Assembly (NCBI GenBank): GCA_013239625.1
Contig: MU053645.1
Location: 1,790,274-1,854,273, forward strand
Length of the DNA stretch: 64,000 bases
Direction: 5' to 3'
Origin: Lama guanicoe
Lineage: Eukaryota
Position numbers and translations under genes: made by a program. Positions 6,600 through 39,722 of this stretch are shown one piece after another. The notes under the pieces were generated by a model. It was not told where the DNA came from, did no database searches, and was given only the letters and a program-made list of their open reading frames with translations. Numbering within the stretch: the first letter of the stretch is position 1; each line of letters starts with the position of its first letter.

Positions 6600-7140
6600 A
6601 GAGTCGTTACCTGTCTCACTTCCCGCGCTCCTGCCTTTAGAAGGAAAGTGGCTCCAGGACACCCTTGGAGCTGGACACTGCACTCATCGGTGCCCGGGGT
6701 GTGGGGTTGGTGACGACCCCAATGTCTTTACCTACGAGACAGCCGAGGCACCGAGTCTCAAAGCAGGAAACGGAGACTTGGATATGGATCCCTTTGTCTC
6801 CTCACATCCCAGGAGGGCGGCCCAGCCCCCACCGCGGGGACCTACACCCTCAGCTGAGTCCCAAACATCTGAAGGCAGGACCCGCTCTTCTCGTCAGACC
6901 GCCTCAGTCTCGGTGGAAAGGTCGTTACGGTCGCCATATTGACGTCAGGTTTCTATGGCAACCGCGACGCGCAGGCAGGTCCGCCCACTCCGGAAATGCC
7001 TCCTCACGCTCCTCCACCCCCTGGATTTCGCTGAAAGCGGAGCACCTTTGCTCTTTCAGGCTGCCACCTGAGAAAGCATAATAATTAGAGGAACTAGACT
7101 GGGACCCGGGTAGTTTGCGGAAGTCTGCCCATTTGTTGGA
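6600..7140 (-). promoter_or_regulatory. CpG-rich promoter-like element, probably of a non-coding transcript
   Basis: Local CpG enrichment. YY1-like CGCCATATT 6932-6940, perfect CRE TGACGTCA 6940-6947, RFX X-box-like GTTTCTATGGCAAC 6949-6962, GC box 6981-6986, ETS-like CCGGAAAT 6990-6997 and GCGGAAGT 7117-7124. Minus-strand splice donors TAG|GTAAAG (6732/6731) and CAG|GTAACG (6611/6610). Confidence 0.65.
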
Positions 7141-18004: not shown

Positions 18005-19687
18005 TTACATTGTTTCAATAATCACTTTAACTTCACGGAAAATGGCCATGAGTGTATTGTAACTCAAGTGATCAACAACTACAATTGAGCCCTTTCTGAT
18101 ATGCTCCTTTATGTTAATAAATATGGCCACAGCACTAACAAGATTGGCTTTTGCCTCTTTCTGGTTAAAGATGAGTTTTAATGCTGCTAATGCCTCTGTA
18201 TTGATCATGTCTCTGGCTGCAGTTGGATTTTCAGACATATTCAAAAGTACTTTCAAAACAAGATTTCTGGTTTTACGATTTCCCAGGGATAGCAAATGGA
18301 AAAGCTCTGAAAAGTAACTGGCAACAATGTGGTGATGGTTAGAATCAGTAGTCAGTTGTCCTAGTATCTTTAATCCAGACTGCTGTCCGGGTGAGTTCAA
18401 GGGAAAAGACATGGTTTCCTTACACATATGCTTAACATGTAATTCAACCTTGCGTTGTCTTTCATCTCCAGAGGGGGGATTCAGAGTAATTACTGCCTTT
18501 TTTCTCATCTCAGAGGAAGGAAAACTGAGTAAGCTTTCAATAAGTGTCACTACACCCACCTCATTAATGAACTCTTGGGCAAATGGGTGAACATTAATGA
18601 TCCCCATCGCAATCTGAGCGATTTTATGAATAAGAGGATCAGTAGTTGACTTAAGTAAGGTAACCAGTTTTTCAAATTCCTCAGAATCCATGTAGCATTC
18701 CATTTTGCAAGGGCAAGCAAATGGCTTAATCCCATTCACCTCCCTGATCCTGATTTGGCGTCTAATCTCCTCTATGGTCTGGATGCAAGGGTCAGAACCA
18801 AATGCGTACTCAGGGACAGGCTGTGTGCCTGAGGGAGTGCTCCTAGAAGAGCACGCTGTTGCCGCAGGCAAAGAATGGGTACTTTCCTCAGCTGAGGCCA
18901 GGACAATATACGAAGGAGGCTTTGTCTCAGATGAGGCCTGGGATCTAAAGCCTAACACTGCTGGAGTTACAGCAGGGGCTTTGGGCCAGATCGTTACCTC
19001 AGACCAGTCCTTGGGTCTATCTTTCTCATTAATTTCATCCACAGGTTGGGGCCTGATTATCCTGCTCACAGGTCTAGGGTTAGGGTCAAAACTAGTTTCA
19101 TCTCCATCCCAAAACCAGTTCCCAATAACGTTCTCTTCCTCCTCCTCTTCAGCCGCTGTCTTAGTCTTGCCACTGGCCCCAGCCACAGGCTCCAACTTCT
19201 CAGCACAGGACAGGGGACTAACATTAGCTTTACCTTCATCCTTAGCACAGATATGATTACCAGACTCTTCTCCATTCCAGAACCAGGGGCTATCACTGGC
19301 CTCTTCCCCAGCCCAGAAAGAGGTATCAACACCAGTCTTATCTTTACATGTAGATCTGGACTCAGCACTAGCTTCAGCCACAGAACAAAACCGAGATGAT
19401 CTAGTGGCTTCATCTTCAGCTTTGGGCCTAAAATCTGACAGGGCTCCTTCCTTCATCTCAGTAACAATCTTGTTCTTAGATGCTACCTTCATCTTTGCCC
19501 CTGCATCTTCCTGAGGCCCTGCCTTGGCTACTGCTTTGGCCGGGGTCTTGGCTACAGATCTGACTACGCCAGTAGCCTCCCTCTTTGCTTCAGCCTCTAC
19601 ACCAGCCCTTTTTTCAGTTTTGGCCTTCTTTTTATTCTCATTCTTTCTATTCCTATTCCTTCTACTTGCATTCTTAACCCCAGTCAT
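18005..19687 (-). CDS. BHLHB9: BHLHB9 / GPRASP3 (G-protein-coupled receptor-associated sorting protein 3), 560 aa, CDS in a single exon
   Basis: Intact ORF. Acidic GASP-type WFW motifs (PWFWNGEE, EENVIGNWFWDGDE) and a C-terminal armadillo-like GASP/ARMCX domain ending ...DHLSYNTLMAIFREVKVIIETM, closely matching BHLHB9 as recalled. Good Kozak context on the minus strand (ACCATGA). Confidence 0.95.
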   Translation of the reverse strand: MTGVKNASRRNRNRKNENKKKAKTEKRAGVEAEAKREATGVVRSVAKTPAKAVAKAGPQEDAGAKMKVASKNKIVTEMKEGALSDFRPKAEDEATRSSRFCSVAEASAESRSTCKDKTGVDTSFWAGEEASDSPWFWNGEESGNHICAKDEGKANVSPLSCAEKLEPVAGASGKTKTAAEEEEEENVIGNWFWDGDETSFDPNPRPVSRIIRPQPVDEINEKDRPKDWSEVTIWPKAPAVTPAVLGFRSQASSETKPPSYIVLASAEESTHSLPAATACSSRSTPSGTQPVPEYAFGSDPCIQTIEEIRRQIRIREVNGIKPFACPCKMECYMDSEEFEKLVTLLKSTTDPLIHKIAQIAMGIINVHPFAQEFINEVGVVTLIESLLSFPSSEMRKKAVITLNPPSGDERQRKVELHVKHMCKETMSFPLNSPGQQSGLKILGQLTTDSNHHHIVASYFSELFHLLSLGNRKTRNLVLKVLLNMSENPTAARDMINTEALAALKLIFNQKEAKANLVSAVAIFINIKEHIRKGSIVVVDHLSYNTLMAIFREVKVIIETM

Positions 19688-20070
19688 GGTTGAAGCCCAG
19701 TTATATAGATAGCTCTATAATCTTGGCCTTGGTCCTCAATGTGTCCCAGGTCAGTGTCTTGATACTCTTTTACTGGACTGAAGGTGATGATCTTCTGTCA
19801 CTCCAAGGCCACCACAGCCACCACTGGAGATAGATCTGAGGTGGAAGAAGGAAATGGGCTTTGAGTCTCTTCCAACTGTGCTTCTCTATGCAGACAGCCA
19901 CACAGGACATGAGAGAACAAAGACAGACGGTGTAGTAGAAGTGGAATAGTAGGGTGCTCATGCTCACACTCACCTTGGATCCAAATGAACAGCTGTTGTC
20001 CGCTTTCTTAATTAAATTCAAAATGAACAGCTACCTGCAGACTTCTACAGAATGGTATAAAGGAATAAAC
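19688..20070 (-). other. BHLHB9: Predicted BHLHB9 5'-UTR structure: coding-exon acceptor at 19835, intron 19836-19973, non-coding exon 19974-20070
   Basis: Minus strand: ttccttcttccacctcAG|ATCTAT acceptor, CCAAG|GTGAGT donor, ctaactttttgtctatccatAG|GTTT acceptor. Confidence 0.6.
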
Positions 20071-21088
20071 CTATGGATAGACAAAAAGTTAGAGGAGAGA
20101 AAACAGAAGAGACTGAGATGGCCCAATGTGACAAGTATTACAACATATACTTCTGCATATTCAAGGCCATGTTAAGTATCTCCCACCTGTCCCCTCCTCC
20201 CAAACGATTCCCCATCCACTTCCAGAAAGCCTGTAGCTTGTCTAACTACACCTTCTCTCAACTCTGAAGTCATTCATTTTCCTTGGACAAAAATATGAGG
20301 TGCAAGAGTGGGTAGTGGAACAGAGACAACTGTATTTAGAAGGCAAGCAGTGAAAAAGATGGGGACTATATTTCAGTACCATCTTGCATGCCCCTGCTTT
20401 TTCCCCCTTCCCCACACATATATAGTTCCTACCTCATTCACCACCTATGCCAACCAGCCCACAAAGCAGGCATCCGCAGGAGAAGTCTTTCCCACCACAA
20501 AACAGTCCACTAGCTGGAGAAGAGTCACACACCCTACAGAGAGAGGAGGAGCATTTAGCAAAACACCAAGAGAATATGTTGACAATGGTAGTAAAATACC
20601 AGGTTAATGGACAGATTCCCAGAACTCAGGCCCTAAAACCTCCTTTTCAAGAATCAGGAAATAAATAAATGGATGTCCACAAAATCTTCTATGGGACTAC
20701 ACCCGTAGCAAAATAAGAGGGAGGGGCTGTGACAGGTGGCTGGGGTTTAGGTTTCCAGAACCAGAAACTGAAGAAGCAGACTGACTTCAGGCGTTCTAAA
20801 TGAACACTTCAGAAAAATTTTCGTATTCTGAACTGCCATTCCCACACCTCAACATATTAACGTGAGCTGGCATGTAGAGATTCCAAACGAGAAAGGTGGA
20901 TTAATACCACATTATTTACTGACATGGATCCTTTCCGTAACAGTCGATTAACCCCTCACCCTGTCATTTGCTTGCATTTAACTGAGCTCAAGCTCTAAAT
21001 ATGGAAAGCAATAAAACTACCATTTTAAGAGGCATATAAACTTTTCATTTTGGTGTCTTCATAAACTACTCGCTTACTTCCTCTTTCG

Positions 21089-22655
21089 CTGAAATCGCCA
21101 GACCTACCGCGCAGACAGGAGACTTTGGCATCAAAGAGGCGCCTGTGGGAAGGGACAGCACCCAGGACGCGGGACCCACAGGTCCCTTCCCAGAATCCGG
21201 GCCCCCGCACCCGCCCGCTCGGCCCCCAGCTCCGACCGCCACCCCAGCCCCGGCCCCGGCGGCCTCCCCGGGCGCCCCCACCCCAGCTCCCCTCCGCCAT
21301 GTCTCCCGCAGCAGCACCCCCACAGCCCTCTCCCGGCACAGACACCGTCGAGGGCGGGGCGCGGGCGCCCGGAAAGCTGACCCGGGAGCCGCCGCGCCGT
21401 TCGCCTGCCAGGATCCCAGCCAGCGTCTGCGGCCAGACCCCGCGCCCCGGGTCCCGTCCGCGCCGGTCGCCGCCGCCTCAGCGCCAGGGGGCCCCCGGAG
21501 CTGCGCACCTCCCTCGGGGACCGGCTCCAGCCGCGTCGCCTCCCGCTCGCCAGGCTGCCGGGGTCCGCGGGGCAGGCTGTGAGCTGCTCGTCGCCCCCCA
21601 CGACACCCCCACTTGCCTGCACAGGCTCAGGGCCCGGGTGGTCGGCCTGGCCCTCCGGTCGGAGCTCCTCACTCGGATTCCCACCGCTCTCCGTGCGCTC
21701 AGAATGGCAAAGAGGCGGCCCGCCCCCCGCGCCGCTGCGCCAAACCGGGCAGGGGCTGCGCAGGATGCGGCACCAACCGCTCGCGGCGAGGGTGTCGGGA
21801 AGGGGGGCGGAGGGATACGGCACGAATGGGCTCGACGCCCCCTCCCAGGCCCACCGTAGTTCCGACCCAGAGGGGGCGGGGCCGGGAGGAACCCCAGCCT
21901 GAGGGGCGGGGCCACGCCAGCCCGCCTCGCCCGCCCCCCGCGGCCCCCGCGCGCCGCGACCACCCCCACACTTCTGGCCCCACAGTGTGTGGGGCCGGCG
22001 AGCGGTCGGCGGTGGGGGCCGGGGTCGGGAGGTCCGGAGGGGCCGCGCTGAGGGGAGCAGCGGATGGATACAGACCGCCCCTCGGTGTGTGTGAACCCCG
22101 AGACTGCTCGGTGTCCGCCCCCCCTCCCCTCCCCTCCGCTCCGCTCCGCTCCCCTGCCCCCCCGCCCGCCATCCTTCCGGGATGCAGATGGGAGAGGGGC
22201 TGTGAGCGCGACCCTCCCCGGTTCTGCTTTCCACGTTCAGGGGCCGCGGTCGGGAGGAAGGTGGGAGGGGGCGCCCACGAAGCCCGAGCCACTGCCCCTC
22301 TTCTAAGGGAAGGCAGCCCTAGACCTCTGGTCTGAGGAGACAAACCACTTGTTTGCGCCAGCGTCGTCATTTTTTCTGCCACACTGCTGTTTTCTCGTTC
22401 GCGGTGGTAACACGCTTTGCCATCGCGCGGTCCCCGCAGCTGCCCAGGAAAGAGGGCCCTTCCCTGTCGGGACCCGCACCGGGTCGTACAGTCCCCCCGC
22501 CTCTCACCCCACAGCCCAGTGTCAGGCACCAGGTAGGGCCTGTCCTGGCGCCTCTTCCTGGGTTCTGTCTGTCAAGTCTTCTCCTGCAGTCACTTCCACC
22601 CTCCCATCATCTTTGGCAGTGAGGGAATGTGGCAGGGGTTCGAATCCATTTGGAT
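21089..22655 (-). promoter_or_regulatory. BHLHB9: CpG-island promoter and predicted first non-coding exons of BHLHB9 (copy A of the duplicated cassette)
   Basis: Very GC- and CpG-rich, with repeated GGGGCGGGGCC GC boxes (~21874 and ~21903). Initiator/YY1-like GCCATT on the minus strand (21703-21708). CAG|GCAAGT donor at 21617/21616. Predicted exon 21108-21142 between cccacAG and GTAGGT. Lies about 1.4 kb upstream of the CDS. Confidence 0.8.
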
Positions 22656-22689
22656 ATCAGCCACTTGGATGTACGCCTGTCTAGTTTAT

Positions 22690-23755
22690 CCATTAGGGCT
22701 GTTAACGTATTTTAATCATACTTATTTTTAATTCCCTGTCTGATAATACCAAAACCTGCATTATAGCTGAGCCTGGTTCTGATGCTTTGTATCCTTAATT
22801 TATGCTTTTTCTTGTCTTTTAGTGTGTTTTATAATTTTGTGTTGAAAGCTGGATATGATGTTGGGTAAAAAGAACTGAAAAAGTACATAGACGTTTAGTG
22901 AGAAGTTTTATGTTAAGCTGGTTAGCAATTGTGCTGTGTGTAATGTTTGCTATAGCCATAGGTGCCAGAGTCTTCAAATTCCTCTAGTGTCCTTATTTTT
23001 GTATCTCCTCTTAACTTTGGGCTTCCCTAATTGCTTCTTGCAGAGACTGCCGGCATCTTGCAACTCTTTAGCTGCACTCCACTGTTACTATCCTGGAGGC
23101 CTGTTAGCATGTGGAGGAGAGGAAGTGTTTATAATCTTACGGTTAAATTCCTGCCGTTTGTGGGCGCGTGTCCCTATACTATGACCTTCAGAAGTGTTTC
23201 TTTAGCTTCTTTCTCCCCCTTATAGGACAATGGAAGGCTAGAGTGGGCTAGATAGGAGGAATGCCTTTCTGTCAACTGGGATAAGGCTCTAGGAAAGTCT
23301 TTTCCACTGGAGAATAGGTCCTTGTTGTAGAGAAGACTCTGGGGGTGTATTTCTCAAGAGTACACTTCCCCTCCCACTGTCAGTCACGAGGGGATCTTTT
23401 GGGGATCTTCACTGTGCGAACCTGCTGGAGTTCCTGGAGGTAAAGCCCACTGAGCCTCTATGGCTGCAGGTCCCTAGAAGTTTCTCACTTTCATACTATT
23501 CCACCCGCAGTCTCCAGCAATTTGTCAAAATTACCATTTAAGTGTCCTTACCTGTTTATGTCTCTAGCAGTTTCTGCTCTATGTAGAGAGAGATAGGCTA
23601 TGACTGTCTGGATTTGTCTTTTCTCCAGAATTTGGGGTGGTCATTTGCCCTATGACCACAGTTCTAAGGTAAGCTACTGATTTTCAGTTTGTTCAGTATT
23701 TTTTTTCTGGTTATAAGTACAGGAGCAATGACTTCCAAGCTTTTTACATGTCAGT
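22690..23755 (-). mobile_element. L1 5'-region fragment (L1M-type), homologous to 45640-47660
   Basis: Shares colinear motifs with the L1 5' end at 45.6-47.7 kb (for example 'tctccagcaatttgtcaaaattaccatttaagtgtccttacc' and 'atgacttccaagctttttacat'). Confidence 0.7.
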
Positions 23756-24064
23756 CTGGCCAGTCTGGAGTATAGATTTTAAGAGGGTAGCTAAAGGCCA
23801 GTGAACACAGCTTTTGCCCTCTTTTTTTCAGCTGAACTTCGGAACTGGGAATAAAGTTGCCCTTGAAAACCTGGCTGCTCCATAAATATTTGCTCTTTTT
23901 CTTCCCAGGGATAGAAAATTTATGTGGCTCCCTGAACCTGGCATCTCAGCCCCCAAATTCTTAACCTTGATTGTAGATTAGAATTCAGACTTCCTAAATC
24001 AAAGTTCTCAGTGGTGAGGTCTGAGCAACTGTGACTTAACTCCAGGAGAAAAGACATCTCTGTT

Positions 24065-24092
24065 ACCACCACCACCACCACCACCACCACCA
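24065..24092. repeat. (ACC)n trinucleotide microsatellite
   Basis: 9 perfect ACC units. Confidence 0.95.
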
Positions 24093-25869
24093 TCAAGAGG
24101 CAGTGCACTCTACTACTAAGTGCTTAGACTTGAGTGACCAGTTTCTGAGCCCTGGAAGCACCTTCTAAAAGGAGGCTGCATGGTAGAGTAAGGACTCTCT
24201 CCTCTGGGCTTTACTCTGGGAACTTGGCCAGACTTCAGAGCCACACACTCTAAAGTTTGAATAGAGACTTTACCACTAACTATTTGTGTCACTTTGGGAA
24301 AGGTACTTAATGTTTTTATAACTCAGTTAAGTCATCCCTCAAAGGGGGTTGGTAATAACTACTTCACTGGATTCTTGTGCACACTAAATGAGAAACTATA
24401 TGATATTCAGAAATATCTGCATGTATCAGGCCTTCGTGGCTCCTTCTAAAATTGTGATCTAGTCATATTATGGGATGAGCTGGGGAAAGCAGTAGATGAG
24501 AATTCCATAGAGATCATAATTGCTAAGACATCGCCACTGGTCTCTTTGTCACTGTAACCTAAGTGCTTTGTATACTCTCTGTTGCTTAACATACCACCTT
24601 ACTAAAAGAACGTCACTTTTGCATAAGTATGCCTCCCTCCTCCTTGTAGTGATGTGCCACAGGGGGGCTAATCCCAATTCCAGAGGTGAGTCTGCTTGAT
24701 CTAGGGCTATTCCATCCCCTTGGTACTCTGGTTCTGGAAGGGGTGGTGACGGAACTCTGCTCAATGAGACATGAAGAGAAGTTTGCAAAAGGACTTTTGA
24801 AGAAAGCGTCCTCACTCATAAGAAAAGGCCATCAGTAAAGATTGTCTCCTTTTCTTCCTTGGGAAGCTGCTTGACTCCAAGAATTATTGCAGCCATCAAG
24901 TTTCAGCCTTAGGACGGAAGTTGATATTGTGAATGGCAGAAGAAAGAGGTGGAAAAGGGCTGAGTCCTTGGCTGAGTCAAGCAATCATCAAGGCTGCCTT
25001 GCCTTAGAACTTCCAATCTGTGGATAATAAATTTCCTTACTAAGTTAAATTTAGTTGAGTTCCTTGTTATATGGAACAATGCTAAGTGATATGTATACTC
25101 AGGCACAAAACAATGCCTCAATGCATAATAGTTCCTGACTTTTGTCTGTTGGTAAGCACCTACCTCTTAAAAACAGTGGCAGAACTCATGTTTCCACGTT
25201 AAAGAAAAACTAGATTCTGAACGTCTTGTCTAATGATTGCTAGAGATCTGACAACTGTGATTGCCTTCTGTTCTAGATTGAAAAGGAATGCCTCAGGCAG
25301 AAAAATCCAACCTTTCTTTTAGGGGGTTCAGAGATACATTAAATACTTGAGCTCACAGATAAACCTAGTTTCAATTCAGAGAGTCATTGTGTAAAAGTGC
25401 ACCCATGTGAAATATCCATGGTGTAAAGATATCAAAGGTTACCTGCTTTCAATTTAGGTGACTGTACTGAAGTTGAGAAAAATAAATTTAGTGTATATAG
25501 TCAGAAAGTTTTGGTTAACTTTCCCCAGGTGTACTGCACTAAGCAACAAAGCTATAAAAAGAGGTGGCTATTTAGGATTTATCAAGAACTGGGATTTTGC
25601 CAGGACAGTGGAGCCAGGCACTAGAGGATGAGGTAGCAGATCAATGGTCCATGATGGACCATTCAGTAGGGAAGGAAGGAAGAGCTGAAGTATGCCAATA
25701 TACAGGTAGAAGGGGCTAAGAGACAGGGAGTCTAACAACACTAAGGTTCAAGTTTCTTTATGATGAATAAAGTACTTTGCTACAAGCTGTAAGGAACAGA
25801 AAATCTGATGATGAAGATAGTGATGGTGACGATGGCAGCTTTCAGTGGTAATTAGCACATGAGGGAAAT

Positions 25870-26125
25870 TGATGTAGCGCAGTGGTAACACACACCAGAT
25901 CCAGATTCAAACTAGAAAGGCTTGACTCTTCAGCTTCTCTGCTAATCAAATCAAGCTCTGCTAATTGAGCTTGCCAAGTTATCAGTCTGTGCCTCAGCTT
26001 CTTCATGTGTAGAACAATAACAGTAACAGCATCTTCTCTATAAGTTTGTTTTGAGGATTAAATAAGTTAATATATTTAGAACCCTTAGGGGAATATCTGG
26101 CATTTATAAAGCACCCTATTAACAA
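25870..26125 (+). mobile_element. MIR SINE
   Basis: 'tctgtgcctcagcttcttcatgtgtagaa...gttttgaggattaaataagttaatatatttagaacccttag'. Confidence 0.65.
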
Positions 26126-26131
26126 TAATTA

Positions 26132-26480
26132 TCATCAGCCTTCTGTATCCTTGGATCCCACATCCATGGATTCAACCAACCATGGTTCAAAAGTACTTGA
26201 AAAAAAGGATTCCAGAAAGTTCCAGAAATCAAGACTTTAATTTGCCACACACTGGCAAGTATTTAAGTAGCATTTTCATTGTATTTACAATATTTACATA
26301 GAATTTACATTGTATTAGGTATTGTAAGTACTCTAGAAATGATTTAAAGTATATGGGAAGATGTGCATAGGTTATGTGCAAATAGTATACCATTTTGTAT
26401 AAGGAACTTCAGTGTCTGGATTTTAGTATCTGTGAGTGGTATTGGGACCAATCCCCCTTGGATACAGAGGGACAACTGTA
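26132..26480. mobile_element. MER2/Tigger-type TcMar DNA transposon (MITE, ~350 bp)
   Basis: Inverted ends 'cagccttctgtatcc' and 'ggatacagagggacaactgta'; internal 'catccatggattcaaccaac' and 'tacattgtattaggtattgtaagta.tctagaaatgatttaaagtata'. Confidence 0.8.
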
Positions 26481-27126
26481 CTATGAAAAGTAATAAAAGG
26501 CTCAGGCATTGTGGTCAGACAGACTAGGGTTTGATTCACACTTTCAGAGTCCAAGTTTCTTCCTCTATGCTACCTACCCCGCAACACTAGTTCTGTCTTA
26601 TTCATAAAAAGAGTCCAGTACATGACATAAAAACAAATGCTTAAATAGAGGTGAATAAAATACTGTGTAAGTACACACGATGGAGGAATTCTTTCCTATC
26701 AGGGGCAAAGAATAAGAGTGAGAGTATCAGAAAGACTTCAAACAGCATTTGAGCTAAGCCTAAAAGATGATTATGTTTCCCACAGGCAGAGAAAGGGCAT
26801 GAGAGCACTGAAACCTGGGGGAACAGTGTGGGGAAACACACAGAAGTAGTAAAGCACAGAGTATAGTTGGGTTGGGAAATAGAAGATAGTCCAATGTGGC
26901 TTGAGTGCAGACAGAGTGAAGCAGGCTTGGACTAGGTGAGACACGAGTGAATGCCACCTTACACTGTGTGTCTTTATCTCATTCGAGTCCTGGCCCTGAC
27001 TTGGAAGAATGTGTTAGAAATTGAGATGGGAAGGTAGAATTGTATGGAAGGGCACAGGGCCTTGAAACCCTCCATAGGGAACCTGGTCATATTTTATACA
27101 GGAGAGCCCACTGAAGGTTGTCATTG

Positions 27127-27213
27127 TTTTTTTAACAGAGGTACTGGGGATTGAGCCCAGGACCTCATGCATGCTAAGCACACACTCTACCATTGAGCTA
27201 TAACCTCCATCCC
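27127..27213 (-). mobile_element. tRNA-derived SINE (camelid Vic-1-like)
   Basis: 'gaggtactggggattgagcccaggacctcatgcatgctaagcacacactctaccattgagctataacctcc'; A and B boxes on the minus strand. Confidence 0.8.
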
Positions 27214-27892
27214 AGAATTTGTTTTTGTTTTTGTTTTTGTTTTTTTGAAATTGAGGTGGAGTAGAAGGTAAGCTTTGTTGTCAGATATAACTTTCATTTA
27301 TTCGTGATTGGACAGATGAAAAACGCACCCTAATTTTATCCCCAAGCAGCAACAGAGTAGGTCAGGTGACATCTGAACCGGTCCCGATATATATTACATG
27401 AGATAGCCCATACTGTATATCCAGAAAGTGGGTAGAAACAAAAGGGCCATATGAGTGATGAAGTATTTACTCCAACTACACCCCCAGGAAAAAATTGAAG
27501 GATGATCCTGGCCCTTACAAGTGCTACCCAAGGAGTGATGAGAACAGAGATAATGATCTTCATGAATGGACACAGAAACACACACACATGCACACGCACA
27601 CGCACAGACATAACACGCTTACCCTGTCCTTTGGCTGAGACTGAAAAAAATCCACAGGCGTGAATTAGTTATGTATCTGCCCTGGGATGCATGTGGGACT
27701 TAGAGGTATCTGTGTGGGCCACAATGTGAAGTTCCCCAAATATAAATGCAGTACTCTCAGGAGGAAATCTAGGCTGAGGGGGCTCTGATAAGAAAAAAAT
27801 ATATAGAGAGAACTTTAAAAATCATCTAAATTGCAGATGCAAGCCACAAAAACATATGCTGCTTTTTCACCCGTAATAGTGGGCTCTGCCTC

Positions 27893-27996
27893 CTTTATTT
27901 TATTTAAAAAATGTTTTAATTGGAGGTACTAAAGATTGAACCCATGACCCTGTGCATGCTAAGCACGCACTCTGCCACTGAGCCATACTCTCCCCC
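27893..27996 (-). mobile_element. tRNA-derived SINE (camelid Vic-1-like)
   Basis: 'ggaggtactaaagattgaacccatgaccctgtgcatgctaagcacgcactctgccactgagccatactctcccc'. Confidence 0.75.
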
Positions 27997-28054
27997 TCTT
28001 CTTCATTTTAACTTGTTTATGTATGATGCATAGGTGGCTGCTAAAAATAGGGAT

Positions 28055-28760
28055 GTGTTACACTACTGAGATCAATTCTTTGACACCAACTACCTGGAGT
28101 TAGCATCAGACTCCATGGTATTTAAGGGTGCAATCCTCAACAATACTGCCCCCATGTGAGATCAGATGCCAGTTACAAGTCTTGGGGGCCACCCATACTT
28201 CTGACTGACAGTTATAAATTCAGGGTTCCCACAACCTCCTCAGGTTGGATAATTTACTAGAACAACTCATGGAACTCACTAAAAGTGCTATATGTAGAAT
28301 TATAGTTCTACTGTAGTTTTATTAGAAAGGATACACATAGGACAAGGTCTGGAAGGGTCTTAGGCATACAGCCTCCATGCACTCTTCCCATGGATTCAGG
28401 GCAACATCACTCTCCCTGGGTATCAGTGTGTTTACCAACCAGGAAGTTCCACTGATCCCTAAGTTTTCACTGGGGTTTCATTACTTAGGCTCGATTGAAT
28501 AAATCATTGGTCATATGATTGAACTCCACATCTAGCCCTCCTCCCCTCTCTAGAGTTCCTGCTGGCCTAAAGGTCCAACTCTAACTATGTGGTTGGTCCT
28601 TCCAGTGACCAGCCGCAATCTGAAGCTAACTAGGGTCCTACAGTCTGTTCACCAGCATAAAAAAGATACTCCTATTAATCAAGAAATTAGAAGTTTTTTT
28701 GAAGCTCTGTGCAAGGAGCTAAGGACGAAGGTTAGATATGTTCTTTCTTATACCACACCA
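28055..28760. mobile_element. Solo LTR, MER21-like
   Basis: TG...CA-bounded ~700-bp element with 'gacaccaactacctggagttagcatcagactcc' and 'caggttggataatttactagaacaactcatggaactca', reminiscent of MER21-family LTRs. Confidence 0.55.
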
Positions 28761-29879
28761 TGTTTGAGGCATTTTGTCAAACTCTAAAAGCACACAGACA
28801 CAGACAAGAGACTACAAAGCTTGAGGGGAAAGGCCATAATCTAACCATTGGTCCTAATACTTACATTACCAGAATTCTGGAGAGTAGAGGGAAGAGGATA
28901 ATAACAAAGGAGGCAGGGGTAAGAGAGGAGGAAGTAGGAGGCTTCAACCTCTATAATCTTACCCACGTGCCCGCTGCTCAATTCTAGCTTTTAAAAGTAA
29001 ACAGGAGGGCCTGAAGTAGTTTTACCCCATAGTTTCAACTCTATAGTGAGTATAAAAATAAGGATATGAGTGGGTTTAGGAAAATGCATTACTTTCTAGT
29101 GACACTTCCCTAAAATGCCTTGTCATCCAGTGGATCCCCGGGGCAGGGGTTGGGGTAGGAGGTGGGATATTCAGTTAGAAAGAGGACAAGGACTTTCCAA
29201 GGGCTGCTACCTAAGATAAGACCAAAGGAGCAAGTCCTAAGAAGTGGGCAGAAAGCAAAATACAAGGAAGACAGCAAAGTATCTGCAGAGAGGACACATC
29301 TGAGACCATCCATAAAGCAGTTTCCATACGTGGTTCCCAGAAAAACCCTGTTCTGAGGCCCAGGACAGAAGCAGGAGGGAGCCTCAGGGGGAGTAGCAGC
29401 TTTTGAGTTCCTAGATGGGAAGGAGCTGCTGCCTGGGGCTCAGATCCAGAAATCATCTTCGGAATCGAGAAGCTTGGCAGTATCCCAAAGAGAAATCTTA
29501 TATGAAGGGCCCAAAGCATCTAGATGCCCTCCTCCTGAGTCTGTTCTCTCCCCTTCCCTAAAGCTACCCAGACTGGGGTTCCTTCCCCTTTTGCAGCTCC
29601 AGGCACCTGGAGCCTTGGCGCCCTCCCTCAATTTCGAGCTGGTCTCAGCTATCCTCACCTTCTGGAAAAGACAGACAGTAGAGAGTGAACGCCAAGTAGG
29701 TGGGAGGAAGGTAGTGTAGCTCACAGTTCCCATCCTCACACCTGCCTTTCCAGAGCCAGCGCCACGAGTGTACACAAATTGGGTGTTCACGAATTGCCAC
29801 TTCACCGTTCCCTGTCTCTGGTCACCCCTGAAGCCAACTCCCTCCACGTGTCCACCTCCCCCACCCACACAGAGAAACA

Positions 29880-30460
29880 CAGATTCACACTGCGCTGGGC
29901 GGGGAGCCTGGGGTGAGGGCAGGGGTGTTCGGAAGGCAGGGGAGAGAGACAGAGGGTCCGAGGCACTTCCTGCACCCGGATCTAGTCTCAGCCAGCGCCC
30001 CTCACGGATGCCACTTCTCGGCCTCGAACCTACCTCCTCCAACAGCGACGGCCGTTTCCCTCCACGAAGGCCTCCCGCGGGATGACTTCCTGCGTCTGGA
30101 GCTCCTGGACAAAAACAGACCCCGGCTAAGACGCTCGCGATTGGCTGAGGGACTGTATCCTCTCCCAACAAGTGCCGTAATTCTGGGCGCCCGAGGGATT
30201 CGTTTTCAGGCTAGTGCAGCATGCAGACCCCCACCCACACACCATCACATCCTACCACTCCTCCCACGGCCGTCCGTCAATCGTCAGGTGTAAGTCCTTC
30301 CTGTCCCTTTGCAGCTGAGCGCGACACACCTCCACGCCCGTCCAAGGGACAGCGCGGTCACGTGACCCGCCGTCAGCCCCACGTGACCGCGCAGGCCGCT
30401 TGTCTGCCGCAGCCCTGCAGCACCGATGGCAGTCTTCTGCCTCTGGGCTCGAGCTGCTTG
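29880..30460. promoter_or_regulatory. CpG-rich promoter-like element between GPRASP2 and BHLHB9 (candidate distal BHLHB9 promoter)
   Basis: CpG cluster with palindrome GGTCACGTGACC 30356-30367, CACGTGACC 30380-30388, reverse CCAAT box (GATTGG ~30139) and ETS-like ACTTCCTG (~30085 and ~29965). Confidence 0.65.
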
Positions 30461-31898
30461 CTAGAACAGTCTGAAGCTCCTGACCGTGCTGAAGATACAG
30501 AGCTGGAAGGAAGGCTGGGCCGGAGCCAAGCTTCCAGCCCTAGGCTGGGCCTTGCTCTGTAGGAGCACAGGGCTGGCGACGAACGCTCGATGAGGAGTTT
30601 CGAGACAACTGACTTTCAGTACTGATTCTGTATAAAACTCGGGTGACATAATAAAACACTCCCGGGATCTGTCTTGAGAAATATCGATAGGCAAAACTCG
30701 CATTTCCACCACTGGGATGATCTCTATTAACACCTGTGGTTTGTGAAGAGAGGCAAAACTGCCACTTTGCCCTACTTCCCTGAACCTTGCACCCTAGAAT
30801 CGGGTGGGGTGGGCGGAGAAAAAAGCATATTGCACTTACAGAAAAATTTTACAAAAATTGGGTAAAGACAGCATAGCTTACTGGATATTAGTTAAATCCA
30901 GTGTTGGGATTTACTTTCTACTGATCCAGCAAGTTTTCAATCATGAGAGACTGATGTTAACTTGCAGATGTCTTGTCTAATAGGTATGGAAATGATTTAT
31001 GTCCAGTGCAACAGAGAGCATCAATGGTTTCAGTTTATTGCCCTTAAGATATTAATCAGCTTTGTATTTGACCCAGCAATGTTACACTTTTATTAATTTT
31101 GTTTGTATAAAATTGAATGTATATTGTTATATTGATTGTATTGTGTATATTGTATATACACATCTCCTTCGACAATTTTCATAATCTTAGTAGTTAACTG
31201 TGTTGAAAAAAATCTTCCATATGTTCATTTCTAATTTACAAATCATGATTTTACCTTTTCAAAAATTAACAGCATCCTCAGACAAAACAAAAATAACATT
31301 TTCATCATGTCTGAAAATAATGAAACATGATTATTTCCCACAAGTCTGGATTTCCTCTCCTAATAACTCTATCCCTCACTTCTGTAATTCTTCTGTCTGA
31401 AGTTATGGCATGATCTTTTCACTTGTTATTGTGAATACACATAACATAAAATCATTTTGACCACATTAAAGTGTACAATTCAGTGGTATTAAGTACATTC
31501 ACAATGTTGTGCAACCATCACCACTATCTACTTCTAGAACTTTGTTGTCACTCCAGAGGAAATGCTATGATTTTTTTTTTATGTAATAGTCATGTAAAAA
31601 GGTTGCCATCATTCTACAGGAGAGTAGTATAAACTTAGCGACCCTGGTAATTTTACTTTTCTTTAAATAAACATTTCATAAGCTAGTCTTTCTTAAGTGT
31701 CATTCCTTTTCAACTTTTCTAGATAAGTTTATCTCTAGAAATTCTTTTTAACACTTAGTTTATTCATTTATAACTGTATCCTTTCCAACATGTCCACCTA
31801 TAACTTGAGGCACTAGATGTAAGCATATTAAAAGAAAAAACCCTGTCTTATTATTATATCTCCCCATGCCTGTCTCTGAAAACTTTTTTTAGCATAGT

Positions 31899-32028
31899 GT
31901 ATTTTTTTAGACTTTTTTTAATTGAGTTATAGTCATTTTACAATGTTATGTCAAATTCCAGTGTAGATCACAATTGTTCAGTTATACATGAACATGCATA
32001 TATTCATTGTCACTTTTTTTTCACCCTG
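31899..32028 (-). mobile_element. Short 5'-truncated lineage-specific L1 3' tail with target-site duplication
   Basis: 'ttttttaattgagttatagtcattttacaatgttatgtcaaattccagtgtag...' flanked by TAGCATAGT at 31890-31898 and 32029-32037. Confidence 0.6.
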
Positions 32029-32749
32029 TAGCATAGTATTTTTTCTAGATATGAGATATATGAAGTTTCTCAGCAAGTCACATTGAAATTGCATAGAAAT
32101 TGTGTCTATTTACACATTTTCAACATGGGATCTAATTTTCAATAGATGATATCACATTCTTCTCTATTTCACTGGACATAAAAGAATCAGTGCCATTTCA
32201 TGCCAATAAATAGATCATTTTTAATAGCTGCATGGTATTTCCTTAATACTTTCCTTGGACTAGGATCACAAAGAAAATCTTATTCCTAACCCCATTTAAT
32301 TGGTGACACTGAAGCAACACCTGTACTTTGAATTGCCAAATGTGTAGATTTGGCCAATTTAGTTCTTCAAACTGGCCTCGTTCCAACTGCAACCCTCACT
32401 AAATGTCTCACTTATGCCAGGCAGATAGGTTACATTCATGCTACTGGAACAGATTTTCCAATTACACACTTTTCTTCATACCACTACTGCTCATTTCCAA
32501 GAATGACCTACTGGGTTGTCTTATCCTACTTTTCAGTGGCCAATTTAAGTGGGTCCCACTTCTCTGGTGCATTCCTCAAATACCACAGCCCACAGAAATC
32601 CCTTCCTTCTTGAGCTCCAGGAATGGGATTTTTCCAATGAGGGTCTATTTGTCATACTACTAATTATCTATGTTTGTAAGTGTGCCCATGTACCTACACC
32701 TGGATTTTAAACTGAAGAAGGGTCACTTTGGCCAATTTTCACATAGAAC

Positions 32750-32755
32750 TTTATT
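32750..32755 (-). terminator. GPRASP2: Candidate GPRASP2 polyadenylation signal (AATAAA)
   Basis: TTTATT on the plus strand, ~320 nt downstream of the stop codon. Confidence 0.65.
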
Positions 32756-33071
32756 GAAAACACAGACTCGAATAGAGAACCATATGTTTAAACAACAAAT
32801 AGCAGGGTAGCTTACACACACGGCTCAGTTCATTGAAAGCTCAATACTGAAAATACTGCAATCTGGACAGCAAGACAAATATCAACAAATTTTTTTCAGC
32901 ACTAATAGTCATTTGGCATCCACAAAATGATCCAGCTCAAATCAAGAATTGGACAATGTTAACATCAGCGTCAAAAATATAAGTTACAACATAAAACCAG
33001 ACTGAAAACCAAAGCACTACTCAGGGCTCTTTGGGAACATAAGGCTGATCAGAGGCAGGTGGTTAATCCTA

Positions 33072-35648
33072 TTAGCTTTTTTGTCCCTCAGGATCATTCT
33101 GATTGTCTAGTTGGACTTGCAGTTCCTCAGCTAACTTCTCAAACTCGTGGAATGCAGAAATAAGCGGCTCAAGACTGAAATCATCATCAATTAAGGACAT
33201 TGTTCCACTTTTTATAATATTACTGATATTCTGAAACATTTTAATAACAATCTGAATGTTATCGTTTGTCTCTTCTATGTTAAAGAGCCCCACAAATATT
33301 GATAGAGCTTTGGCACTGAATAGTTTTTTTGCCACCATAGGATTTTCAGACAAATTCAATAGCATTTTCAGAACATGAAACTTTGTTCTTGCATTGCCTG
33401 TAGTTAATAAGGAGAGAAACCCAGACATATAATTGGCAACCAGTGTGTGATAGTCAGTAGTTGTAGTAAGGTGTCTAAGCATCCTTAATCCAAGCAGCTG
33501 CTCAGGGGAACCCATGCTATGAGCAAGGGTTTCTTCACACACTTGACATACGAATGTCTCAATCATGTTCAGATTTGGATAAGGTGGAGCCATGTGAATC
33601 ATATTTTCCAAAAAACTTGTCCTAACACGGGAGGAGGGATAATTGAGCAAGGTTTCAATAAGTGAGACAACACCTGAATCACGAATGAAATCGCGGGTAA
33701 ATTGAGAAGCACTCCTCATACCCATTGCAATTTTAGATATTTCATGAATAAAAGGATCTCGAATTTTGTCCATTAACAGAAGGAGTTCTTCAAACTCTTC
33801 AGGACCAATTTTAAGCTCACATTGTATGCAGCTGCAGGACCAATTCTCAGGCTCTGCACTCTCCTTGGCCTTAAGATGCTCTCGAATTTCCCTGACTGAC
33901 CGGTAGGATGCATCATAGTGAAATGGGAACTCAGGGTCAGGTTGATCAGGCTGCAGCAAAGACTCCTGGTCTTCCCCTTCTGGGGTAACCTCCACAATCT
34001 TGGGCTTTCCCTCAAACATTTCAGAGTACACAGATGCTACTGCTTCTTCAGGAATTCTAAATGGGCTTGGGGATGGGAAGCCAACCCCATGACAAAGACC
34101 AGGTTTGAATTCAACAGTAACCTCATCCCAGGTTTGGGGCCTGGATGATACATTAACTTCCTCCTCAGCTGAATCTCTGAACCTGGGAGCAGCCTTGTAC
34201 ACGGGACGGGGATTTAAGTCAAAGCAGGCCTCATCCCTGTCCCAGAACCAGGACCCAAATATGGCCTCTTCTTCAGACTCTGGCCTGGCCTCTTCTTTGG
34301 CCACAGCTCCCAAATTGGACTTATCCTCTGTCCAGAACAAGGACCCACCAATGGCCCCCTCCTCAGCCCCTGGCTCGGATTCACAGATAGCCGTAGCCCC
34401 AGCTTCCATACCAGCCTCTTTCTCTGCCCAGAACCAGGACCCAATAATGACGTCTTCCTCAAATCTGGACTCTTGTTTGGCTCTATCACTGTTGTTAACA
34501 TCATTCTGGGCCCTGGACTTCAAGATAGTATTAGGCTCTTCCTTGTCTCTGGGCCTGAATCTACTATTGGCCTCTTCTCCAGGCAAAAACCAAGACTCCT
34601 TATAGTACTCATCTTCAGACTCAGATTCAAAAAAGTCCTCTCTCTTTGTCCGGAGCTTGGACCTGATATTTGCCTCATCCCTGACTCTGGGCCTGAACAA
34701 GTTATTGGTATTTTCTCCAGCCCACAAGCAGAATGGGTTGCCAGACTCTTCCTCAGACCCAGACCAGGAATCAATATAGGGATCTTGCTTGGATCTGGGC
34801 TTGGATCTGGGATTAGGCTGATGCTTGGCCCTATGCCTGGACCTGGTATTGGCCTCTTCTCTGGGCCATGATCTGATACTGGCCGCTTCTCCAGCCCAGA
34901 AAGAAGACATTGTAGAGGTCTCATCTGCTGACCAGAATCCAGACTCATTAGAGGCCTCCTCTCTGGCCCTGGGCCTGGGATAGCACCAAGACCCTGTATT
35001 AGTTTCCTCCCCTGATCCAAACCAGGGTTGGATTCCTGTCTGAACCTGGGAGCCAGGAAAGGTCTCAGTCTCCACACCGACCAATTCCCTATCCACAGGT
35101 AGGCCCATAGGTTTAGCAACTGACCCAGACTCAGAACTGACCAGTGGCCAGGCTACCGCATTGTTCTGGGACACGCTCTCTGTTTGGGACATGGCCTCAG
35201 CCCCAAACTCAGTCTGGGCCCAAGCCTGGGCTTCATCCTTGGGCCGTGTCCCAGGGATTGCCTTGGCTTCAGTCTTAGGACGTGCCCCACCTACTGCTCT
35301 GGCCTCAGTTTTGGGCCTCGCTCCTGCCACCACTTGGGATTCAGTTTTGGGCCTTGCCCCGGCAATTGCCTGGGACTCAGTTTTGGGTCTTGCCCCGGCC
35401 ATTGCCTGGGACTCAGTTTTGGGTCTTGCCCCAGCCATAGCCTTGGACTCAGTTTTGGGCCTTGCCCCAGCCACAGACTTGGACTCAGTTTTGGGCCTTG
35501 CCCCAGGCATTGCCTGGGCCTGGGTCCTAACTTTAGGTCTGACCACCATTGGGACTTCATTCTCTCTCTCAGCTCCACCCCCAACCTCTTCTCCAGGCTT
35601 CTTTTCACGCTTGGCCTGGGCGCTAGGCTCAACCTCAGCCCCAGTCAT
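33072..35648 (-). CDS. GPRASP2: G-protein-coupled receptor-associated sorting protein 2 (GASP-2), 858 aa, CDS in a single exon
   Basis: Intact ORF from the first ATG ([13 protein letters not shown]...). N-terminal GARPKTE repeats, central GASP motifs ([22 protein letters not shown]) and a C-terminal armadillo-like domain (…[24 protein letters not shown]…[11 protein letters not shown]). The ORF-track start at 35735 is an upstream GTG. Confidence 0.96.
35232..35510 (-). repeat. GPRASP2: Coding 36-bp tandem repeat (8 units of a 12-aa GARPKTExxxxx motif) in GPRASP2
   Basis: 'ctcagttttgggccttgcccc' recurs every 36 nt; seven GARPKTE units plus one GTRPKDE unit. Confidence 0.9.
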
Positions 35649-36353
35649 AGTACAAGTTACAAGGGAGGCCCCGTTAAACACTCCTATCCCAGTCTCAGTC
35701 TCTACCACAGATCTGTCACAGTACTGGATCTTCACACTCTAATCTTTCGATGATTCAGGTGATACAGTTGGAAACAAAAGTTAGTCAATCACCAGTCCAA
35801 CAGGCAGTCAGCCTCCTTCCCAAGCCCAGCCTCAGCCAATATTGCAGACAAAGAGGAAGCACAAGCAAGCTGGGGGAGGATGGATGGCTCCCGGGTGGGT
35901 GCAGACCTGTTGAGGGTGGTGGTCAGCCCCAAATCCCACACCACCAGAGCTGCCACTGGAGATCAATCTAGGAAGAGAGAATGACATGGGGCTTTGAGTC
36001 TCTTCCAATTGTGTCGCTCCACGCAAACACACACAGAGACTGGACCTTTAATGCTTAGTGGGACAGTTAGGTTATCAGAAGGTCTCTCTGCCACCCTCAT
36101 TTTGCGCACACCCTTTACTCCCAGAGCTTTGCCTGCTACAAAAGAGGTGTGAAAATGGTGGGAAAGTGTTTTGGTAATGGGAGAGGCTGAGGAGCACCCA
36201 GACCAGACCCTAATCACTCCTGGACCTGTGTTGGTCTCCTCTAGACCACTCAAAGTGGTACCCACTCTCATACCAACCTGCACTTATGTGGTGCAATTTT
36301 CCTCTTCTTGCTTTGTCCAGTAGTATTAAGCCCTAAGCAGATAGCAGGCCCTC
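35649..36353 (-). other. GPRASP2: Predicted GPRASP2 5'-UTR structure: coding-exon acceptor at 35967 and a candidate non-coding exon 36278-36353
   Basis: Minus strand: cattctctcttcctAG|ATTGATCTCCAGTGG acceptor (homologous to the BHLHB9 acceptor), tgcttatccatAG acceptor and GCAG|GTTGGT donor. Confidence 0.5.
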
Positions 36354-37373
36354 CTATGGATAAGCAAACATATAGGAGAAAATGGAGTCTGAGTGCTTGT
36401 TTGACAGGTAGGTACTTTGACCTCTGACACACACATCTTTCTGTTTAAGGGTCTCATTTGGTGTTTCCAGTCTCCTGGTTCCTGCTCTCAGGTCTTCTCA
36501 CATCCACAGTCCAATCCACACTTACCCCAATATTCCTAATATCTCCTGCAAAAATGGGCAAAGGGTTCTGCAGAAGTATGCAAATCTGGAAGACAGTAGG
36601 ACACGTGAATCAAAAACACCCAATTGGATGAAATATACCTGTCAGTCTTACTTTGTAGCTATCCCCTGCATTGTCCCTCTTCAAACAAACCTCCAGACTT
36701 GATCCAGTCTCTTCCTCCTTTCCTTTCTTGCAGAAGTGACCAGCCTTACAGCAGCTCTATGGACAAAAGATGAAAAGGTAAGACAGGAGACCAGGTAGCT
36801 ACTAAGCGCCTGGTGGACAGACCAATACCAAGGATGGGAATCTATATGTTGTCTTTAAATATTTAGAGTTCTCCTGGTAGAAGATTATCATTTTATTTAG
36901 GCTATTTCTGCGTTCCCAATAACAAACGACATCTCTTGACGTCACACTCTTCGCATTGCTCTCTTCTCCAATTCTAAGGATTCACCACTAGGTGTACCAC
37001 ATCCCTTTGCCTTGCGCAGCATAAATTGGGGGAAGGGCGCCCGCATATTCTAGAAAACAGGTTGTGCAGTGGTACTTGCATTTAAGACTTAACCCTGACC
37101 CTCACCTCCCAGCCCATCTCTTCCACCCTCAATTTTGTGGAGATGAGGAAGGAAGGCAAGAGAAGTGTGTAGAAACCTGTTAGAGAAGGCAATTCTAGAA
37201 GGTATTCCCGGATGCCTTCTTGCTCTGGTCGCAGTCACCCCACCCCATTCGGGTCTCCAGTCAATGGCTGCTGCCCACCCCCACCTCCCAACCCCACACA
37301 CCTTCAGAAATACAGGCTCGTTTCCTGCTCTTCGTTTTTCTCAAGCCTCTCCACTACAGATGCACCCCTTGGC

Positions 37374-38940
37374 CTGAAATCGCCAGACCTACCGCGCAGA
37401 CAGGAGACTTTGGCATCAAAGAGGCGCCTGTGGGAAGGGACAGCACCCAGGACGCGGGACCCACAGGTCCCTTCCCAGAATCCGGGCCCCCGCACCCGCC
37501 CGCTCGGCCCCCAGCTCCGACCGCCACCCCAGCCCCGGCCCCGGCGGCCTCCCCGGGCGCCCCCACCCCAGCTCCCCTCCGCCATGTCTCCCGCAGCAGC
37601 ACCCCCACAGCCCTCTCCCGGCACAGACACCGTCGAGGGCGGGGCGCGGGCGCCCGGAAAGCTGACCCGGGAGCCGCCGCGCCGTTCGCCTGCCAGGATC
37701 CCAGCCAGCGTCTGCGGCCAGACCCCGCGCCCCGGGTCCCGTCCGCGCCGGTCGCCGCCGCCTCAGCGCCAGGGGGCCCCCGGAGCTGCGCACCTCCCTC
37801 GGGGACCGGCTCCAGCCGCGTCGCCTCCCGCTCGCCAGGCTGCCGGGGTCCGCGGGGCAGGCTGTGAGCTGCTCGTCGCCCCCCACGACACCCCCACTTG
37901 CCTGCACAGGCTCAGGGCCCGGGTGGTCGGCCTGGCCCTCCGGTCGGAGCTCCTCACTCGGATTCCCACCGCTCTCCGTGCGCTCAGAATGGCAAAGAGG
38001 CGGCCCGCCCCCCGCGCCGCTGCGCCAAACCGGGCAGGGGCTGCGCAGGATGCGGCACCAACCGCTCGCGGCGAGGGTGTCGGGAAGGGGGGCGGAGGGA
38101 TACGGCACGAATGGGCTCGACGCCCCCTCCCAGGCCCACCGTAGTTCCGACCCAGAGGGGGCGGGGCCGGGAGGAACCCCAGCCTGAGGGGCGGGGCCAC
38201 GCCAGCCCGCCTCGCCCGCCCCCCGCGGCCCCCGCGCGCCGCGACCACCCCCACACTTCTGGCCCCACAGTGTGTGGGGCCGGCGAGCGGTCGGCGGTGG
38301 GGGCCGGGGTCGGGAGGTCCGGAGGGGCCGCGCTGAGGGGAGCAGCGGATGGATACAGACCGCCCCTCGGTGTGTGTGAACCCCGAGACTGCTCGGTGTC
38401 CGCCCCCCCTCCCCTCCCCTCCGCTCCGCTCCGCTCCCCTGCCCCCCCGCCCGCCATCCTTCCGGGATGCAGATGGGAGAGGGGCTGTGAGCGCGACCCT
38501 CCCCGGTTCTGCTTTCCACGTTCAGGGGCCGCGGTCGGGAGGAAGGTGGGAGGGGGCGCCCACGAAGCCCGAGCCACTGCCCCTCTTCTAAGGGAAGGCA
38601 GCCCTAGACCTCTGGTCTGAGGAGACAAACCACTTGTTTGCGCCAGCGTCGTCATTTTTTCTGCCACACTGCTGTTTTCTCGTTCGCGGTGGTAACACGC
38701 TTTGCCATCGCGCGGTCCCCGCAGCTGCCCAGGAAAGAGGGCCCTTCCCTGTCGGGACCCGCACCGGGTCGTACAGTCCCCCCGCCTCTCACCCCACAGC
38801 CCAGTGTCAGGCACCAGGTAGGGCCTGTCCTGGCGCCTCTTCCTGGGTTCTGTCTGTCAAGTCTTCTCCTGCAGTCACTTCCACCCTCCCATCATCTTTG
38901 GCAGTGAGGGAATGTGGCAGGGGTTCGAATCCATTTGGAT
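37374..38940 (-). promoter_or_regulatory. GPRASP2: CpG-island promoter and predicted first non-coding exons of GPRASP2 (copy B of the duplicated cassette)
   Basis: Same sequence as 21089-22655; lies about 1.7 kb upstream of the GPRASP2 ATG. Confidence 0.8.
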
Positions 38941-39204
38941 CTCAGCCACTTGCATGCACACCTGTCTGGTTTCCCCAACCGTTCTTTGGAGAAGGTTCCG
39001 TCATGCACCCACTGCCCCAGGACAGAAACCTGCTGGTTCTTCAATCCCCTGGCTCCTGTACCCCTACACCCTTCCTGTAGTCTTGAGCCCCTCTTCTCTG
39101 TGCTCCACGGGGCAAACAGCAACCCTAGTTAAGCACAACTGTGGTTGAGCACAAACCTGCTGGCACTGTTGTCCATTTTAAAACCCAATTCAATGGCACC
39201 CTCA

Positions 39205-39722
39205 CTTGGCAGGCTGCGTAAAGGTCTCCAAAGATGTCCACGTCCTATTCTCCAGTACCTGTAAGTATGTGATGTTATATGGCGAAGGAGAATTAAGGTT
39301 GCAGATGGAATTAAGATTGCTAATGAGCTGAATGTAAAATGAAGATTACACTGGATTATCCTGACCAATGCAATGGCAAGGGAACTTTTAAACGTGGAAG
39401 AGGCAGGCAGAAGTGTCAGTGTCACAGTGAAGTAGCATGAGAAAGACTCGACAGGTGGACAGGCCATTGCTGGTTTTATCTTGAAGATGGAAGGAAAGCC
39501 AGCGGCCAAGGATTGCAGGCTGACCCCAGAAGCTGAAAAAGGCAAGGAGACAGATTTTTTCCTAGAACCCCTTGGAGGAATGAAGCCTTTGTATCACCAT
39601 TTCAGACCAGTGAGTCCCTTTTCCTATTTTCAACCTTCAGCGTTGTAAGATATTTTATTGTTCCTTTTTTAAGTCAGCAAGATTGTGGTAATTTGTTATA
39701 GCAGCAGTGTGAACCAAATTCA
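39205..39722 (+). mobile_element. MLT1-type MaLR solo LTR
   Basis: 'ggcaggctgcgtaaaggtctccaaagatgtccacgtcctattctcc...ttaaggttgcagatggaattaag...gtggtaatttgttatagcagc'. Confidence 0.75.

Follow-up and report, generated by a model that had tools for sequence, protein, structure and literature searches.

Near-identical CpG-island cassettes upstream of GPRASP1, GPRASP2 and GPRASP3/BHLHB9 in the guanaco, probably maintained by recurrent gene conversion

A 64,000-bp stretch of the guanaco (Lama guanicoe) genome was analysed (assembly GCA_013239625.1, contig MU053645.1, positions 1,790,274 to 1,854,273), here called the window; positions are given in its own numbering. The window carries GPRASP3/BHLHB9 and GPRASP2, and GPRASP1 lies outside it. 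A GC-rich block of 1,567 bp was found upstream of all three genes, and its copies were designated as A (GPRASP3/BHLHB9), B (GPRASP2) and C (GPRASP1). The evidence indicated, with a probability of about 0.88, that recurrent non-allelic gene conversion has kept this three-copy CpG-island cassette nearly identical, with the genes diverging in their remaining parts.

Pairwise comparison of copy A with copy B showed 0 mismatches (1,567/1,567 bases) at an offset of 16,285, and the exact match stopped precisely at the ends listed in Table 1. A preliminary description made from the sequence had reported this direct repeat with the same offset and ends. The chance probability of such identity was about 1e-152, even assuming 20% background divergence. 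A search of the guanaco's own genome revealed the third exact copy, 68,035 bases past B, so that the proposed sharing of one cassette by two genes was right as to the sharing but short by one gene. The preliminary description had also advised checking the promoters of GPRASP1 and ARMCX5: the GPRASP1 copy was exact, while the ARMCX5-like gene was preceded by a block relic of 345 bases with 77% identity. Besides the block copies, block D and the GPRASP1/GPRASP2 patches (Table 1), exact direct matches of at least 60 bases across the 171 kb examined were limited to one 83-base tandem.

Table 1. Positions of the block copies, converted patches, exons and copy-A edge described in the text (window numbering unless another contig label is given)
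Feature	Position	Strand	Remarks
Copy A of the CpG-island block	21089..22655	-	Exact match to B and C; likely promoter and 5' non-coding exons
Copy B of the block	37374..38940	-	Upstream of GPRASP2
Copy C of the block	G000:C1320:1895682-1897248		Outside the window, upstream of GPRASP1
Diverged A/B shoulder	22657..22688	.	27/32 identical, chance P ~3e-12
2,669-bp perfect patch, GPRASP2 and GPRASP1 only	37030..39698	-	Contains copy B; flanks 78% and 81% identical
Perfect GPRASP1/GPRASP2 patches of 366, 233 and 115 bp	35485..36249	-	First 54 codons and pre-coding exon
242-bp perfect GPRASP1/GPRASP2 patch	33561..33802	-	Inside Arm domain
Block D, second CpG island, 1,105 bp	29697..30801	-	Identical copy at G000:C1320:1887347-1888451
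GPRASP3/BHLHB9 coding exon	18005..19687	-	560 aa, Arm_2 domain
Predicted pre-coding 5' exon of GPRASP3	19779..19905	-	71% to 35911-36038; not converted with B
GPRASP2 coding exon	33072..35648	-	858 aa, Arm_2 domain

The block had a G+C content of 0.72 and an observed/expected CpG ratio of 0.76, compared with 0.42 and 0.21–0.25 in the flanks. It therefore has the composition of a CpG island, as the preliminary description had stated, and copy A lies 1.4–3.0 kb upstream of the GPRASP3/BHLHB9 coding exon. Candidate splice donors, recognized by motif, were found in copy A at 22507, 21672, 21510 and 21108, and the labels exon 1, intron 1 and exon 2 for parts of the block denote such motif candidates. 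Judged from island composition, position and splice motifs, the block is likely the promoter and first non-coding exons of GPRASP1, GPRASP2 and GPRASP3/BHLHB9.

ARMCX5, GPRASP1, GPRASP2 and GPRASP3 lay on a common strand, and in each an upstream segment was followed by a pre-coding exon of about 128 bases and then by the coding exon. ARMCX5 was named by gene order in Table 1 of PMC1274310 rather than by protein search. The GPRASP3 pre-coding exon was also an old homologue of its GPRASP1 and ARMCX5 equivalents. Outside the block, the flanks of A and B could be aligned only in a 32-bp shoulder, in the 128-bp pre-coding exon (71%) and in an old repeat. The spacing of the pre-coding exon was 2,307 bases at A, against 2,459 and 2,482 bases at the other copies. 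Since the diverged shoulder and the 71% pre-coding exon stand at matching spacing, copy A is an old homologue and not a fresh insertion. The left edge of copy A was sharp, the DNA at 19906–21088 being single-copy, and on the right it was bounded from about 22678 by an old interspersed repeat with about 70% identity to other genomic copies. The sharp left edge, with no alignable DNA beyond it, is what a single recent camelid duplication would leave, one in which the GPRASP1/2 promoter replaced that of BHLHB9 with no ongoing exchange. The right shoulder and the pre-coding exon make such an event very unlikely, and the pangolin data below speak against it as well.

Evidence from other species came from protein records and was compared at the peptide level. 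The Camelus ferus RefSeq model XP_032330587.1 ran through the block into the A-only flank (19/20 codons matching), crossing the left junction of copy A as in the guanaco. Outside residues 1–13 and 71–78, a low-complexity stretch, C. ferus copy A showed 7 amino-acid-visible differences from the guanaco block; two of these were C. ferus changes.

In the pangolin Manis javanica, the fused automatic model KAI5943965.1 contained, in colinear order, copy B, B-specific DNA, GPRASP2, block D, copy A, and the BHLHB9-specific intron and exon. It translated the segment 21736–21607 twice, in two frames. The A and B readings required 0 differences over 120 nt, compared with at least 19 differences from the camelid, and in the segment tested the camelid and pangolin blocks were about 15% apart. 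The simulated probability of the Manis A/B result was 0.40, 0.10, 0.008 and 0/1000 at true divergences of 2, 5, 10 and 15%, respectively. Two Manis changes were required by both A and B and were absent from the pangolin Smutsia and from the camelid. Two Smutsia gigantea models on separate 20-kb contigs had 189 identical block-derived residues and then diverged, one into B/C-type DNA and the other into A-type DNA, the latter being assigned by 21/22 residues to the Manis A exon. The probability of this sharing was 0.024 at 1% divergence and 0/2000 at 2%.

The paralogues were thus closer within species than between them in both camelids and pangolins at the peptide level. The pangolin A copy already has the block, with pangolin-specific and Manis-specific changes common to B; a recent duplication would therefore have to be repeated separately in each lineage. 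The duplication itself appeared old, in that GPRASP1 and GPRASP2 were each monophyletic in their C-termini and the gene order was the same in the Manis model and the human table. Strong purifying selection on a regulatory sequence might also keep copies alike without exchange; the CpG-island nature of the block and the conservation of one of its segments in ARMCX5 would favour this. However, sister copies did not differ in the segment in which camelid and pangolin differed by about 15%, identity extended to every position, including the predicted intron and an old repeat, and lineage-specific changes common to sister copies contradict this explanation, which is extremely improbable.

GPRASP1 and GPRASP2 shared more than the block. 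Their DNA contained six perfect runs of 2669, 1105, 366, 242, 233 and 115 bp, and the stretches between were 78% and 81% identical. High-identity tracts thus lay inside diverged homologous DNA, as six runs between B and C and with the shoulder at A. The 2,669-bp patch included an old interspersed repeat (about 39220–39720) with about 70% identity to its genomic relatives. The alpaca reference proteins of GPRASP1 and GPRASP2 were likewise common over the first 54 residues. The 242-bp patch suggests that coding conversion also occurs in the Arm domain. At the position of this patch, GPRASP1 equalled GPRASP2 over more than 120 residues in horse, Przewalski horse and donkey.

One copy of block D, the second CpG island, lay downstream of GPRASP2 and the other downstream of GPRASP1. 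The human GASP3 annotation begins 3 kb after the end of GASP2 (PMC1274310, Table 1). Block D at 29697–30801 corresponds to this human start and is therefore likely a distal promoter of BHLHB9, which would then have a second promoter and would not be locked to the cassette. The proposal that the shared head locks the paralogues to a single promoter was thus probably too strong. The block D copy downstream of GPRASP1 could be a distal promoter of GPRASP2, about 60 kb away.

The protein comparison took in 15 lineages in which GPRASP1 and GPRASP2 were both represented (11 same-species pairs and 4 pairs from related species). Over the first 41 residues, the own paralogue was at least as close as the best orthologue in 20/30 cases, and in 16/22 for the same-species pairs; over the last 165 residues, which served as the control, this was so in 0/30. 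Only the C-terminal tree separated the genes, with GPRASP1 and GPRASP2 each monophyletic (16 pairs). In this set the GPRASP1 records P0089 (Przewalski horse) and P0092 (marmoset) had been replaced by P0251 and P0259, and alpaca had been added; the earlier set with P0089 and P0092 gave 21/30 at the N-terminus and 2/30 at the C-terminus. P0089 and P0092 had GPRASP2-like C-termini, unlike the checked GPRASP1 records of horse, donkey, the newer Przewalski horse and capuchin, and are likely chimaeric. The tree proposed in the preliminary description was in this way answered with peptides: pangolin A and B and 20/30 N-termini grouped within species, and 10/30 did not. With the mosaic identity and the old diverged shoulder, the within-species grouping in camelids and pangolins gave good support to its explanation by recurrent non-allelic gene conversion.

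Between the block and the ARMCX5 relic, 39 sites had G/C in the block against A/T in the relic and 7 the reverse (p = 2e-6), a comparison made without an outgroup and giving no direction. The G+C content of converted extensions was raised, at 0.53 against 0.44 and 0.47 against 0.37. These values suggest that the conversion may be GC-biased.

Several observations weigh against gene conversion as set out above, or against the exactness of the identity. The assembly consists of 55,231 contigs, and five small unplaced contigs tile the repeat (37030–37422, 21089–22103, 22176–22655, 38892–39496 and 39496–39698), with 49-base overlaps at three junctions and with ends exactly at the repeat edges. Each of three among the five had 2 sites at which it departed from all placed copies; 4 of these sites are in the block (21301, 21307, 22179 and 22183, in two contigs) and 2 in the B/C extension. 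At 21301 the letter of the unplaced contig was that of C. ferus, which makes the exact identity doubtful. None of the 7 C. ferus differences (0/7) was shown to be llama-derived and fixed in the three copies, the doubtful contig site aside. The cross-species evidence for copy A consisted of peptides of three or four automatic models, whose assemblies may homogenise repeats, and the A-type Smutsia model could be a GPRASP1 copy instead. In 10/30 N-terminal comparisons the orthologue was closer than the paralogue, both simian pairs were ungrouped in the N-terminal tree, and Camelus GPRASP1 and GPRASP2 differed at residue 42. The 39:7 asymmetry could partly reflect CpG decay in ARMCX5.

On balance the odds lean slightly towards a near-identity that arose by conversion and an exact zero that arose from the assembler, through filling or polishing of a collapsed repeat, which modifies gene conversion as the explanation and does not replace it. 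The fragmented assembly and the tiling contigs with 49-base overlaps form a short-read graph pattern, and the three divergent contigs, one carrying a letter of C. ferus copy A, point the same way. However, the placed copies differ from the unplaced contigs and hence are not pasted contigs; two of these differences fall within the initial 8 bases of one contig, next to a low-complexity gap, where they may reflect errors, and the remaining ones may be alleles. The true identity of the block may be about 99.7% rather than 100%; the near-identity would then be real and the exact zero in part assembler-made. A pure artefact, with the block present only once or twice and misplaced before BHLHB9, would fit a fragmented assembly of GC-rich DNA. 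It has next to no probability: the unplaced contigs break exactly at the edges of A and B, which B and C alone do not explain, so that the reads probably held a third neighbour on each side; the left junction of copy A is crossed by the C. ferus model as well; and the pangolin models put the block before BHLHB9.

The 95% upper bound on divergence was 0.19% for 0 differences and 0.58% for 4. The mammalian substitution rate is 1–2.5 × 10^-9 per site per year. At this rate the last homogenisation would have taken place at most about 1–3 million years ago.

The following course of events is consistent with these results. ARMCX5, GPRASP1, GPRASP2 and GPRASP3, which share order and strand, stem from tandem copies of one unit, most of which has diverged to about 80% or past alignability. 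In the germ line, double-strand breaks would be repaired with a sister copy at a distance of 16, 68 or 84 kb as template and with no crossing over, and new mutations would thereby spread to all copies, an outcome seen in camelids and pangolins. Tracts would end where homology is lost, as at the old repeat that adjoins copy A. Mismatch repair favouring G/C would raise the G+C content of the island. Crossovers between the direct repeats would delete GPRASP2 (A–B) or GPRASP1 (B–C) and would probably be purged. ARMCX5, with its 77% relic, is out of exchange. According to PMC6440958, a mouse deletion including both GPRASP1 and GPRASP2 is lethal.

Open reading frames of 223, 310 and 373 codons in the block were considered as genes and rejected: open frames are accounted for by a G+C content of 72%, a frameshift interrupts the C. 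ferus reading, which also passes a stop present in the guanaco block, and database models translate differing frames. In P0273 (XP_032330587.1), P0118, P0274, P0278, P0117 and P0138, all public automatic models, the CpG island is translated or GPRASP2 is joined to BHLHB9; these models are likely artefacts of annotation caused by the GC-rich block. One such automatic model bears the name 'spidroin-1-like'. An Rfam search of 21200–23700 gave 0 matches. Of two metagenome scans, one gave 0 matches and the other 199 pattern matches with 0 confirmed. Six RNA runs contained 0.14–0.53 of the sampled words from 20089–23700, which is not evidence of start sites. Fourteen DNA run rows (4 possible sources) shared 0.88–0.99 of the sampled words; they were not junction-specific and were not used as evidence.

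The open reading frame of GPRASP1 behind copy C encoded 1,378 aa. GPRASP1, GPRASP2 and GPRASP3 each showed 3 residue differences from the alpaca protein and 9–24 from those of Old World camels, which marks the source as a South American camelid. The pre-coding exon lay 92 bases from the start codon in GPRASP3 (19688–19778), 263 in GPRASP2 and 268 in GPRASP1, and a pangolin model retained a longer intron-like read-through at the GPRASP3 leader position, which suggests that the camelid GPRASP3 leader underwent a deletion. Elephant records (P0219–P0231, P0235) included several BHLHB9-like proteins per species, which suggests a GPRASP3 expansion in this lineage. Elsewhere in the window, a weaker CpG island at 6001–7000, downstream of BHLHB9, resembled neither the block nor block D. 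The region 41000–64000, which spans the interval between GPRASP2 and GPRASP1, was A+T-rich (G+C 0.335) and had many self-matches of 64–67%, which we take to be typical of old LINE (long interspersed nuclear element) fragments.

The preliminary description knew of no earlier account for this locus; conversion there was published in 2005. Winter and Ponting reported conversion of 5' untranslated regions (UTRs) among the BEX, WEX (TCEAL) and GASP genes at Xq22, with the GASP1 and GASP2 5' UTRs in concerted evolution in human and mouse (PMC1274310). Their cluster and process are those described here, with chimaeric genes, converted heads, divergent proteins and raised G+C; however, a three-copy cassette of 1.6–2.7 kb, block D, camelids and pangolins are absent from the main text. 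GASP3 occurs in that main text only in Table 1, and Additional file 1, which holds the inferred events, may include it. In the 2005 table GASP1, 2, 3 and 5 are not marked for BGW, a motif of 57–60 bp in the first 5' exon, and the block was therefore not classed as a BGW element.

The BGW motif cluster of Navas-Perez et al. 2020 (PMC7586669) is the same eutherian cluster, with paralogous promoters of common origin and conversion between paralogues noted; it differs in concerning a motif of about 60 bp and coding conversion in Bex/Tceal, and the main text had 0 occurrences of Gprasp or Bhlhb9. The gene pairs BMP8A/B, DDX19A/B and TUBG1/2, described in PMC2720389 as concerted for more than 100 million years, resemble the present case in mosaic identity, raised G+C and persistence across mammals. 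In those pairs, however, conversion affects parts within the genes and the upstream DNA is diverged, whereas in the GPRASP genes the upstream head is the converted part. GPRASP and BHLHB9 were not found in the available supplements of two human conversion surveys (2/3 files of PMC10172114 and 11/13 files of PMC3790853). A literature search, with most subscription papers outside its scope, returned no report pointing to BHLHB9/GPRASP3 conversion. The process itself is already published at this locus; the present analysis adds GPRASP3 as a third gene, the length of the cassette, block D as a second converted island, and the camelid and pangolin evidence.

The block copies offer a case in which conversion of regulatory heads, as opposed to coding DNA, is clean and can be measured, with the ARMCX5 relic as an internal control for tests of GC-biased conversion. 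Short reads from chromatin immunoprecipitation (ChIP), methylation or 5' RNA experiments are unassignable among the copies, and guides or probes against one promoter would strike all three. The direct repeats predict recurrent deletions of 16 kb and 68 kb. GPRASP2 is linked to X-linked deafness and, in mice, to autism-like traits (PMC6440958 and PMC10201758). As a tentative idea that we think has the odds against it, conversion among their promoters might have linked GPRASP1, GPRASP2 and GPRASP3 in a three-way network through most of placental evolution. Selection would favour a single control head evolving as one unit, along with a second island held in common, regulatory mutations would spread to three receptor-sorting genes, GC-biased conversion would build the CpG island, and ARMCX5 would represent island decay after leaving the network. 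If the copies are working promoters, regulatory variants would be common to the three genes.

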